The position numbers and the translations under genes are program-made. From assembly GCF_003334815.1 (NCBI RefSeq), contig NZ_QOWO01000008.1: a DNA stretch of 64,000 nt, one strand, 5' to 3'. Within the stretch, counting starts at the first letter, position 1. Each line of letters starts with the position of its first letter. Origin of the DNA: Escherichia coli (GTDB taxonomy: Bacteria; Pseudomonadota; Gammaproteobacteria; Enterobacterales; Enterobacteriaceae). The notes below the pieces were generated by a model. It made no database searches, was not told the DNA's origin, and saw only the letters and a program-made list of their open reading frames with translations. Below, in pieces: positions 15,296 to 25,546 of this stretch.

Positions 15296-15382
15296 TGGTA
15301 CCCGGAGCGGGACTTGAACCCGCACAGCGCGAACGCCGAGGGATTTTAAATCCCTTGTGTCTACCGATTCCACCATCCGGGC
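15296..15382 (-). tRNA. leuZ: tRNA-Leu (anticodon UAA)
   Basis: Reverse complement reads GCCCGGATGGTGGAATCGGTAGACACAAGGGATTTAAAATCCC...GGGTACCA, 87 nt with encoded CCA. Confidence 0.95.
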
Positions 15383-15394
15383 TCGGGAAGAAAG

Positions 15395-15468
15395 TGGAGG
15401 CGCGTTCCGGAGTCGAACCGGACTAGACGGATTTGCAATCCGCTACATAACCGCTTTGTTAACGCGCC
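15395..15468 (-). tRNA. cysT: tRNA-Cys (anticodon GCA)
   Basis: Reverse complement reads GGCGCGTTAACAAAGCGGTTATGTAGCGGATTGCAAATCCG...GCGCCTCCA, 74 nt. Confidence 0.95.
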
Positions 15469-15522
15469 AAATTCTTCAGGCCTTTCAGCCAGACATCCGC
15501 TTGACGCCGATGTCTTTTAAAC

Positions 15523-15598
<76 letters not shown>

Positions 15599-18840: not shown

Positions 18841-19298
18841 AGGAATATCTCCAGAAATAGGGATAACGCTACTGATAGTTAGTCATTCGTATATTAGCGG
18901 TTTTTATTGCAACTTTGAAACGTTAAAAATGGTGGGTATTCGATTTTTCTCTCGTTTTTGTCAATTCGATTGTCCACAGTTATGGTCACGCCCGTCACCA
19001 ACGGCTTACCGGATCGTTTCACAGTAAGCCCTGCGACGAAATGTGACAAAAATTACCTTTATTCAGCAAAAATGAAAATCAGCCCGCTGAATATGTAACA
19101 TTAATTAACCCGAACAATACGGGCAAAAAACATTCATGATAAAAATATTTATTGGTCATTATATTAACGCATTTAATAGCACCGTTGACGATACGCTCAA
19201 AAAACAACCACTGCTATTTTTAGCAAAGCTTATGGTATACTCCGCCGCCTTAACATTTTTCACCGCAAATTTTCATTGCAACATGACGAGGAAAATAA

Positions 19299-19523
19299 AT
19301 GAGTACGCCTGATTTTTCTACTGCCGAGAATAATCAAGAACTGGCAAATGAAGTCTCCTGCCTGAAAGCGATGCTGACGCTGATGCTGCAGGCGATGGGA
19401 CAAGCTGACGCGGGCCGCGTGATGTTAAAGATGGAAAAACAGCTTGCGCTGATCGAAGACGAAACCCAGGCTGCAGTATTTTCCAAAACGGTTAAGCAAA
19501 TTAAACAAGCCTACCGTCAGTAA
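19299..19523 (+). CDS. yecF: DUF2594 protein YecF
   Basis: 74-aa ORF matching recalled YecF. Confidence 0.88.
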
Positions 19524-19590
19524 TATAAAACCGGCTGATAGCGTGCCTTTCAGCCGGTTTTTGCATCTGGCACGCAGGACAGAAAAGAGA

Positions 19591-20313
19591 TCAAATTAAG
19601 CCAGTAGCGGCCGCGTAACAGGCAACCTGGGTCTTATTCGGTGCATTGATTTTTTTCTGCATGTTTTTCTGATGGAAATTGACCGTATTCTCAGAGATTG
19701 ACAAAATCATCGCTATCTCTGCTGATGTCTTCCCTTCCGCCGTCCATTTCAAAATTTCTTTTTCGCGCTTGCTGAAATTCATCTCTGGCGTCATCACTAT
19801 TTCATCATTTAAACGCATCAGAGCCATCAGACTTTCGCGCACCAGTAACTGCATTTTTAATTGCAGTTCATCACTAAGAATGGGTATTTCGCGCGCGCTG
19901 CTACGGGAAAAGGACAAAAAGCCCAGCGCCCGGTTTGGCAGCATTAAATACTGAGTGACACCGCGGCGTAAACCATGTGCGCGCGCGGCTTCCCATAACG
20001 GCTGTGCTTCGCTGAATAAGTCATCATTCCACATTAAATGGCCCTGACTAAAGTTTTCAGGGTTCAGCACCGGATCAATTGCGAGAAAGTTTTTTGCCTG
20101 ATAATAACTAACCCACGCCTCAGGGTAATTGGTGTAGAAAGCCACTTTAGGTCGCGTGAATGGTACCGGGTGGCGAACACATAACGAATAGTAATCGTAC
20201 TCTAGCTGCTGAGCCTGAAGCTCTATTTCATGGTAGACCTCTTCTGCGGCCTCCATCCTCTGAAAACGCAACAGCATCGTGCGACGCCAGCTGAAAAAAT
20301 CCGTATCCTGCAT
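19591..20313 (-). CDS. sdiA: LuxR-family orphan quorum-sensing regulator SdiA
   Basis: Track ORF starts at 20325 (MRFTMQDTDFF...); recalled SdiA (240 aa) begins MQDTDFFSWRRTMLLRFQ at ATG 20313. Confidence 0.94.
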   Translation of the reverse strand: MQDTDFFSWRRTMLLRFQRMEAAEEVYHEIELQAQQLEYDYYSLCVRHPVPFTRPKVAFYTNYPEAWVSYYQAKNFLAIDPVLNPENFSQGHLMWNDDLFSEAQPLWEAARAHGLRRGVTQYLMLPNRALGFLSFSRSSAREIPILSDELQLKMQLLVRESLMALMRLNDEIVMTPEMNFSKREKEILKWTAEGKTSAEIAMILSISENTVNFHQKNMQKKINAPNKTQVACYAAATGLI

Positions 20314-20542
20314 AGTAAACCGCAACGCCCCTGAGAGTGAGTATCATTTATAATGATAATTCAAACTATCACATAAATAAGATTTATATATAATTTATAT
20401 TATTCAGGCAATGAATTACTTTTGCAAGCCATCGCATTCTCTTATGTTATTAATGAGTTATGCTGATTTGTTAAGCTGTTTTATCACGCTTGAAATGGCG
20501 TCCCGCCCCGACAGGTGAATCGTCGGGGCTGATTTTTTCTTA

Positions 20543-21295
20543 TTATTGCAGCAGAAACTTCTCGAGGAACTGGCGGGTGCGAGGCTGCTGGGGATCGGCA
20601 AATAACGCTTTTGCTGCCCCCTGCTCGACTATCCGCCCCTGGTCCATAAAAATCGCCCGGTCCGCAACATCCCGGGCAAAGCTCATTTCGTGCGTCACAA
20701 TCACCATCGTGCGCTTTTCCTGCGCCAGCTGACGGATGGTGTTCAGGACTTCGCCCACCAGCTCTGGATCCAGCGCCGACGTTGGCTCGTCAAACAAAAT
20801 CACCTCAGGACGCATTGCCAGCGCACGTGCAATCGCAACACGTTGCTGTTGACCGCCAGACAAACGACGTGGATAGCTGGTTTCTTTACCGGCCAGCCCA
20901 ACTTTCGCCAACAGCTCGCGAGCGCGCGCCGTGGCCTCTTCTTTCGGTTCGCCTTTGACGATCACCGGCCCTTCAATAATGTTTTCCAGCACCGTACGAT
21001 GCGGAAACAAATTAAAGTTCTGGAAGACAAACCCGACGTGCTGACGCAACTGGCGAATCAGCGATTTTTGCTGACTTAATGAACGTGCAGTATCAATAGT
21101 GATATCGCCAACGGTGATAGTTCCCGCTTCCGGTTGTTCCAGCAGATTTATGCTGCGTAGCAACGTGGTTTTGCCGGAACCACTCGGACCGATAATTGCC
21201 ACCACTTCGCCAGGCTTTACCTCAAGGTCGATACCGTGCAGCACCGTCTGACCGTGAAATTTTTTCACCAGGTTCTTAACTTCAATGGCACTCAT
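20543..21295 (-). CDS. tcyN: Cystine ABC transporter ATP-binding protein
   Basis: 250-aa ORF with Walker A GPSGSGKTT and ABC signature LSGGQQQR; matches recalled YecC/TcyN. Confidence 0.94.
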   Translation of the reverse strand: MSAIEVKNLVKKFHGQTVLHGIDLEVKPGEVVAIIGPSGSGKTTLLRSINLLEQPEAGTITVGDITIDTARSLSQQKSLIRQLRQHVGFVFQNFNLFPHRTVLENIIEGPVIVKGEPKEEATARARELLAKVGLAGKETSYPRRLSGGQQQRVAIARALAMRPEVILFDEPTSALDPELVGEVLNTIRQLAQEKRTMVIVTHEMSFARDVADRAIFMDQGRIVEQGAAKALFADPQQPRTRQFLEKFLLQ

Positions 21296-21960
21296 TTTGG
21301 TTCTCTCTCCTGGCGATTAAGTTGATTCTCAAAATGGTTCTGCAACGTCGATAATACTGTCGCCATGATCCAGTAGATGAGCGAAGCCGCCAGGTACATG
21401 GTGAACACCTCCAGCGTGCGCGAGGTAATCAACTGCGCCTGACGGAACAGCTCCGGCACCTGAATTGTCGCGGCCAGCGACGTATCTTTTACCAGGCTGA
21501 TAAAGCTGTTCGACAGCGGCGGCAACGCCACCCGCGCCGCCTGTGGCAAAATCGCGCGACGCATAGTCTGCCATGGCGTCATACCAATACTGGCAGCTGC
21601 TTCCCACTGACCTTTATCAATAGAAGAAATGGCGGCGCGCAGCGTTTCGGCAGCATAGGCGGCAGTGTTGAGCGACAGACCAATCATTGCTGACGGAATG
21701 GGATCTAATTCGATACCAAACTGCGGCAGGCCGTAATAGATCATAAACAGTTGTGCGATGAGCGGTGTACCACGAAAAATAGAGATATAAAAACGCGCCA
21801 GCCAGCGCACGGGCCAGATTGGCGACAGGCGCATCAGCGCGAGAATAAACCCGAGCAGTAAGCCAAAAAACATGCCGCCGATACTGAGTTGCAGCGTATA
21901 CCCAGCCCCTTTCAGCAGGAACGGCAAGGAATCAATAACCAGTTGTATACTTTCTTGCAT
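21292..21960 (-). CDS. tcyL: Cystine ABC transporter permease
   Basis: 222-aa membrane ORF matching recalled YecS/TcyL; 4-nt overlap with tcyN. Confidence 0.93.
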   Translation of the reverse strand: MQESIQLVIDSLPFLLKGAGYTLQLSIGGMFFGLLLGFILALMRLSPIWPVRWLARFYISIFRGTPLIAQLFMIYYGLPQFGIELDPIPSAMIGLSLNTAAYAAETLRAAISSIDKGQWEAAASIGMTPWQTMRRAILPQAARVALPPLSNSFISLVKDTSLAATIQVPELFRQAQLITSRTLEVFTMYLAASLIYWIMATVLSTLQNHFENQLNRQEREPK

Positions 21961-21974
21961 GAGCGTTCCCGGAG

Positions 21975-23866
<1,892 letters not shown>

Positions 23867-25447: not shown

Positions 25448-25546
<99 letters not shown>

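Follow-up and report, generated by a model that had tools for sequence, protein, structure and literature searches.

Which transcript ends at the GC-rich hairpin that stands between sdiA and tcyN in Escherichia coli, and is that transcript a new one? The question is raised by a 64,000-nt stretch of E. coli DNA (contig NZ_QOWO01000008.1; referred to here as the window, and numbered from its first letter), in which a palindrome and a T-run at 20505-20538 are oriented against both of the neighbouring genes. The hairpin and its U6 tail are almost certainly the Rho-independent terminator of SdsN, a known trans-acting small RNA (sRNA) encoded between sdiA and tcyN. SdsN was reportedly first described by Hao, Updegrove, Livingston and Storz (Nucleic Acids Res 2016, 44:6935). 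The terminator is therefore already known: it belongs to a gene whose characterisation dates from 2016 and which figures in the annotation of the reference genome. The same palindrome also lies at the 3' end of tcyN on the other strand, and it is this second position that raises the questions of function and origin considered below.

A one-sided terminator hairpin

The open reading frames (ORFs) place the window in the E. coli uvrY-yecF-sdiA-tcyN-tcyL-dcyD region. The sequence-only reading that drew attention to the site had the gene layout right, with sdiA at 19591-20313 and tcyN at 20543-21295, both on the minus strand. The locus contains the following features.

19591-20374, minus strand: sdiA coding sequence (annotated at 19591-20313) and its 61-nt leader, with a primary 5' end at 20374
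20349-20354, plus strand: TATAAT, the likely -10 element of SdsN178 judging by its sequence and its position 7 nt upstream of 20361
20361-20401, plus strand: 5' extension of SdsN178, its start obtained by arithmetic from the isoform length and the common terminator
20389-20394, plus strand: TATAAT, the likely -10 element of SdsN137 judging by its sequence and its position 7 nt before 20402, where the annotated sRNA starts
20402-20538, plus strand: SdsN137 (sdsN, b4719), from annotation and gap-free alignment
20403-20410, plus strand: nt 2-9 of SdsN137, UUCAGGCA, the perfect complement of UGCCUGAA at the start codon of narP
20422-20450, plus strand: promoter-like site TTGCAA-N17-TGTTAT, read from the sequence, inside SdsN137
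20435-20465, plus strand: conserved SdsN core, nt 34-64, CATTCTCTTATGTTATTAATGAGTTATGCTG, from alignments of Escherichia species
20500-20542, minus strand: 43-nt tcyN 3' UTR, which begins just after the stop codon and runs as far as the mapped 3' end
20505-20529, plus strand: stem-loop, GCCCCGAC / 9-nt loop AGGTGAATC / GTCGGGGC, from the sequence and from folds of both strands
20530-20538, plus strand: UGA spacer and U6 tail, the T6 run occupying 20533-20538
20543-21295, minus strand: tcyN (yecC) coding sequence, from the ORF list and annotation, with its stop codon at 20543-20545

Read directly, the plus strand at 20505-20538 is GCCCCGAC-AGGTGAATC-GTCGGGGC-TGA-TTTTTT. The two arms of the stem (20505-20512 and 20522-20529) form 8 bp, seven of them G-C pairs, around a loop of 9 nt, and the tcyN stop codon, which reads TTA on the plus strand, lies 4 nt beyond the end of the T6 run. 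As RNA, the plus strand folds at -17 kcal/mol with the 8-bp stem formed, and three added pairs place the U-run directly against the helix. The hairpin on the minus strand equals it in stability (-19 kcal/mol, z = -3.3) and is followed by GGGACGCCAUUUCA, which contains no U-tract; past the extended stem, three of nine nucleotides are U. The plus strand thus shows the hallmarks of an intrinsic terminator, a GC-rich stem closed by a short loop with a U-tract next to it, and lacks the second U-rich tract, on the minus strand, that would characterise a bidirectional terminator, the minus-strand tail being the sequence just given. The hairpin almost certainly ends a short plus-strand transcript as an intrinsic terminator, and the sequence-only reading, which had described a terminator at this position on the plus strand only, was correct in both respects.

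The hairpin at 20505-20538 is no chance feature. A strict pattern, in which the stem is perfect, 8 bp or longer and includes six or more G-C pairs, the loop measures 3-10 nt and a 9-nt window holds six or more T, occurs six times at four distinct sites in the 64 kb, and in 100 dinucleotide-preserving shuffles it occurs 0.22 times on average and twice at most, so that a hairpin of this strictness is about 20 times rarer in shuffled sequence. The element is the sole plus-strand site for this pattern in the window; the terminator of the sRNA DsrA is another of the sites. A consensus terminator scan with a loop limit of 3-8 nt does not list 20505-20538, and the only reason for this is that its 9-nt loop exceeds the 8-nt limit.

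SdsN and the other readings of its sequence

The curated MG1655 record, NC_000913.3, gives an ncRNA gene sdsN (b4719, 'small regulatory RNA SdsN') at 1996921-1997057 (+), in the interval that separates sdiA from tcyN, both of which are on the other strand. Gap-free alignment shows that SdsN137 is identical in the window and in K-12 at 134 of 137 positions, without indels, and that the two share the locus, the strand, the 5' and 3' coordinates and the terminator. The three substitutions in the window (20477, 20487 and 20504) spare both the conserved core and the 8-bp stem; a fourth, outside the sRNA, is in sdiA. The annotated 3' end, 1997057, corresponds to 20538, the last T of the T6 run, and it is from this coincidence that the hairpin is identified as the SdsN terminator. 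A covariance model of SdsN built from Escherichia scores 158.8 bits in the window, which was itself part of the training set.

The sequence-only reading knew of no annotated sRNA here, and in this it was mistaken, given that the annotated gene b4719 ends exactly at 20538. The omission may be due to the absence of SdsN from Rfam and from the automatic annotations that were sampled: among 20 automatically annotated E. coli genomes, sdsN was annotated in none, and only tcyN and sdiA lay under the match; the curated K-12 record is the one place where the gene is listed. A search of 19000-22000 against Rfam at E <= 1 matched no family, and a gathering-score search of the whole window returned no match at the hairpin site; Rfam 15 appears to contain no SdsN model. 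Elsewhere in the window, Rfam gathering-score matches were obtained for DsrA (47105-47191, minus), RseX (55527-55616, plus) and three tRNAs (15299-15598, minus), together with a borderline match to ES036 (CssrF) at 25484-25525 (plus; 38.1 bits against a threshold of 37.6). The region itself is almost ubiquitous in the species: of 5426 complete E. coli genomes, 5376 contain a 261-bp stretch around the hairpin with an identity of at least 90%, and in 5369 of these the match extends over at least 80% of the stretch. In one E. coli genome, NZ_CP107140.1, the match is limited to 95 nt on the tcyN side (167-261 of the 261-nt query), which means that this strain has lost or replaced the 5' part of sdsN together with the sequence towards sdiA.

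Evidence on the plus-strand 3' end that the sequence-only reading placed at about 20538 is divided. The curated annotation ends there, but among the curated 3' ends that Adams et al. 2021 obtained by term-seq (LB at OD 0.4 and OD 2.0; M63) there is no plus-strand entry near 1997057, which low expression of SdsN in those conditions could explain.

According to PMC5736990, SdsN137 and SdsN178 arise from two RpoS-dependent promoters and share a common terminator, and the dependence of SdsN on sigma-S is likewise stated in PMC9262595 and PMC8139620. The sRNA is described as Hfq-dependent and as repressing narP through pairing at its translation initiation region, control of narP being lost in the pairing mutant SdsN137-1 (PMC9262595). 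It is also described as repressing the nitroreductase NfsA and the NO dioxygenase HmpA (nfsA, hmpA) and as protecting against nitrofurans (PMC8139620, PMC7038943). In the window, nt 2-9 of SdsN137 (UUCAGGCA) pair perfectly with UGCCUGAA, positions +2 to +9 of narP, with an energy that by itself is not above background. At the level of sequence, this 8-nt match would fit the published repression of narP by pairing of SdsN137 at the initiation region. Windowed duplex predictions for SdsN137 against the initiation regions of nfsA, narP and hmp gave energies no better than those of random 90-mers, and full-length duplex predictions for SdsN targets returned long duplexes without meaning.

These features suggest a simple course of events, in which RNA polymerase would start at either promoter, near 20361 or at 20402, transcribe the conserved body, pause on the U-run and be released by the 8-bp GC stem, yielding isoforms of 178 and 137 nt with a common 3' end at 20538. 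In Hfq-dependent sRNAs the terminator hairpin and the 3' oligo-U serve Hfq binding and stabilisation. By analogy, the hairpin and U-run of SdsN should double as such a module, whilst the single-stranded parts upstream would pair with the nfsA, hmpA and narP mRNAs and bring about the repression described in the literature.

Compared with known terminators, that of SdsN resembles the terminator of DsrA, as in both cases a short sRNA, linked to sigma-S and dependent on Hfq, ends in a GC-rich stem and at least six U. It departs from the canonical terminators of Hfq-binding sRNAs in three ways: the 9-nt loop is longer than usual, the U-run begins 3 nt past the perfect stem unless three weaker pairs extend that stem, and the hairpin is common to a convergent mRNA.

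Two further readings of the SdsN sequence have to be considered. The sequence-only reading proposed a sigma-70 promoter, TTGCAA-N17-TGTTAT, at about 20425-20455. Both hexamers are present with the 17-nt spacing, slightly further to the left (20422-20450), but they lie inside SdsN137 and correspond to no described promoter, and as the source of the known isoforms the site is rejected on account of this internal position. The site is also absent from the results of a promoter scan of the window, because TGTTAT has no A at its second position. An unannotated plus-strand transcript of about 80 nt, running from this site to the terminator, is very improbable. Its length is unlike that of the described 178- and 137-nt forms, and its start would be near 20457, whereas the shorter isoform of SdsN, which we take to be about 124 nt long, would start near 20415. 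A form other than those of 178 and 137 nt does exist, according to a review that counts three SdsN isoforms (PMC8139620), and this, with the spacing of the hexamers, is what favours such a transcript. The conservation of the stretch is already explained by the body of the sRNA, and is uninformative as to promoter function because the hexamers are embedded in that near-invariant body.

The second reading, that SdsN is a dual-function RNA which also encodes a 35-aa ORF at 20411-20518 (+), can hardly be credited. The ORF starts with ATG and spans 35 codons in both the window and K-12, but in E. albertii and strain E69 it is cut short by a stop at codon 8, and its start codon is lost in strain SCPM-O-B-8794; in addition, its C-terminal half is not conserved and no convincing Shine-Dalgarno spacing precedes it. 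A coding SdsN is rejected on the grounds that the 35-codon ORF is broken in three Escherichia lineages, and SdsN is therefore taken to be non-coding.

The minus strand: sdiA leader and tcyN 3' end

A plus-strand RNA from this locus was initially envisaged as antisense to the sdiA leader. Supp. Table 1 of PMC10667835 lists a primary 5' end of sdiA at 1996893 (-), with A-U-G as its first bases; this corresponds to 20374, where the bases of the window match the published start. SdsN178 would share about 14 nt with the leader, which SdsN137 does not reach, so that the antisense relationship is marginal for the longer isoform and non-existent for the shorter. The sdiA and SdsN genes are essentially divergent.

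Several other observations concern sdiA. The 5' end at 20374 belongs to a block, CTAWCACATAAAT, conserved in every genus sampled, and the sdiA and SdsN promoters stand back-to-back within about 40 bp of AT-rich sequence. The leader contains a Fur-box-like palindrome, TGATAATCATTAT, which matches GATAATGATAATCATTATC at 17 of 19 positions in Salmonella and at 16 of 19 in Citrobacter koseri, and which recurs in other genera; it lies roughly 19-40 nt ahead of the start codon of sdiA. Escherichia has a degraded version (12-13 of 19 positions), at 20340-20362 in the window, where the presumed -10 element of SdsN178 is found. A literature search combining 'sdiA' and 'Fur box' returned no paper on Fur control of sdiA by title or abstract. 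The lists of Adams et al. 2021 include a minus-strand 3' end internal to sdiA (K-12 1996471, window 19950) and a region of Rho-dependent termination antisense to sdiA on the plus strand, downstream of yecF (K-12 1996249, about 19728 in the window).

At the tcyN end the palindrome has a second role to be weighed. Supp. Table 3 of PMC10667835 records a minus-strand 3' end at 1997019, which is window position 20500, 5 nt past the hairpin. In those tables this end accounts for 0.62 of local ends in the wild type and for 0 in a pnp mutant. The same values, falling from 0.62 to 0 in an rnb mutant, appear on a later sheet, which was taken as the RNase II wild-type sheet by its position before that headed 'RNase II ends in delta-rnb'. 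Supp. Table 7 of the same source gives an operon boundary of 1997018-2001819 for the fliA-tcyJ-dcyD-tcyLN transcript. On the minus strand the palindrome would thus form the 3'-terminal hairpin of the fliAZ-tcyJ-dcyD-tcyLN transcript. In these published K-12 data a stable hairpin after the stop codon is accompanied by an exonuclease-dependent 3' end nearby, as expected of a structure at which exonucleases halt. The mature 3' end of tcyN most likely results from 3' exonuclease trimming back to the hairpin and not from efficient intrinsic termination, because the end depends on two 3' exonucleases and the minus strand has no U-tract.

It is accordingly probable, in our judgement, that the hairpin primarily or additionally stabilises the 3' end of the tcyN mRNA, with PNPase and RNase II trimming read-through transcripts to about 5 nt from the stem. 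The sequence-only reading had offered a structural element of the tcyN 3' end as its alternative, and the minus-strand end 5 nt past the stem bears this out. The stability of the minus-strand fold also argues for such a role, as does the comparison with other genera described below. Against it, the mapped end comes from a single dataset, in the supplementary tables of PMC10667835, and the lists of Adams et al. 2021 contain no minus-strand 3' end at the site. A stabilising role in tcyN does not compete with termination of SdsN, with which it is compatible; the element would then be one of dual use.

Full-length RNA profiling has reportedly revealed shared or bidirectional terminators between convergent genes throughout the E. 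coli genome. The SdsN/tcyN palindrome is like these in that RNA 3' ends lie beside it on both strands, and differs from them in having a U-tract on one side only, the minus-strand end being apparently a product of exonuclease trimming. That it acts as a true bidirectional intrinsic terminator, releasing both SdsN and tcyN transcripts efficiently, is unlikely. The two genes do converge on one hairpin with 3' ends recorded on either side, and an A-run upstream of the hairpin on the minus strand mirrors the U-run of the plus strand. However, the minus-strand tail GGGACGCCAUUUCA offers only three U among the nine nucleotides that follow the extended stem, and the disappearance of the minus-strand end in exonuclease mutants points to the trimming of a longer read-through RNA. 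The stabilising role finds a nearer parallel in the 3' stabilising hairpins of operons ('selective RNA processing and stabilisation', PMC10667835), with which tcyN shares a stable hairpin closely following the final stop codon and a 3' end, here 5 nt downstream, that requires PNPase and RNase II; the tcyN hairpin is set apart from them in that its opposite strand is an sRNA terminator. The last 39 nt of SdsN are fully complementary to the tcyN 3' UTR, forming a cis-antisense pair (20500-20538) that includes both hairpins.

Conservation and origin of the shared hairpin

The comparison across genera covered 80 loci encoding SdiA relatives, with one genome per species. In 77 of these tcyN is upstream of sdiA on the same strand, and the spacer between them, usually 208-323 nt long, was extracted. 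Spacers of 1505 nt in a Pluralibacter MAG (L064) and of 572 nt in Klebsiella indica (L080) suggest insertions. Enterobacterial sdiA loci also occur in records labelled Terrisporobacter mayombei and Chryseobacterium sp. 18061 (L070, L079), which are probably contaminated or mislabelled; the T. mayombei record is a 503-bp contig with 97% identity to E. coli SdiA.

Within Escherichia, seven sequences were compared, from E. coli lineages, E. albertii, E. whittamii and one further species. The first 70 or so nucleotides of SdsN137 are nearly invariant, nt 34-64 being identical at 30 of 31 positions, and nt 70-104 drift. The T-run is kept in all seven sequences, as T6 in six and as GT5 in E. albertii. 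Across the eight stem pairs, 91% of cells are paired, as opposed to 30-54% when the partner columns are slid, and RNAalifold returns the same helix from the Escherichia alignment. Two of the eight pairs show compensatory double changes, one from A-U to G-C and the other from C-G to U-A, and the loop varies freely. This covariation is modest, as 14 of 500 shuffles reach the observed score and the sequences are only seven and related. Conservation of the stem is therefore seen within Escherichia, with compensatory changes at two of the eight pairs; the Escherichia hairpin is unalignable with those of other genera.

Outside Escherichia the picture is different. In the 71 other loci, the SdsN body could not be aligned and the covariance model built from Escherichia detected nothing, its best hit (16 bits, E = 1.9) being on the wrong strand; among the 77 sdiA-tcyN loci, the SdsN body and T-tract are confined to Escherichia. 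Most other genera nevertheless have, no more than about 15 nt past the tcyN stop codon, a stable hairpin whose sequence is unrelated, and in none does a T-run follow on the sdsN strand. In Enterobacter, Lelliottia and Silvania the stem UUUGCUCCAG...CUGGAGCAAA is followed by UUAUUCUC, which is U-rich on the tcyN strand, and in Pluralibacter the tail on that strand has eight U in 9 nt. The recurrence of a hairpin just after tcyN in most of the 71 loci, with a T-run or a detectable SdsN in 0 of 71 and with many U-rich on the tcyN strand, favours the role of the element in stabilising the tcyN 3' end.

A possible, though doubtful, account of its origin is that a young, Escherichia-restricted SdsN gained its terminator by exapting an older tcyN 3' hairpin, through the acquisition of a T-run on the opposite strand and of two upstream -10 elements. 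The basis for this scenario is positional and comparative, and it is held as doubtful because the hairpins of the other genera do not align with that of Escherichia.

With respect to prediction, an sRNA terminator was correctly recognised from sequence alone by the asymmetry of its hairpin, a result of value for calibration. The locus also exposes an annotation gap, since 5369 of the 5426 complete E. coli genomes contain the region, and yet SdsN appears to have no Rfam model and is listed in none of the 20 automatic annotations sampled. If the element is of dual use, convergent transcription or pairing could couple the flagellar/cystine operon, and read-through into sdiA, to a sigma-S-dependent sRNA. 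The restriction of SdsN to Escherichia and the hairpin that it has in common with tcyN may not have been stated in the literature, and SdsN/tcyN would provide a tidy example of how new sRNAs acquire their terminators.
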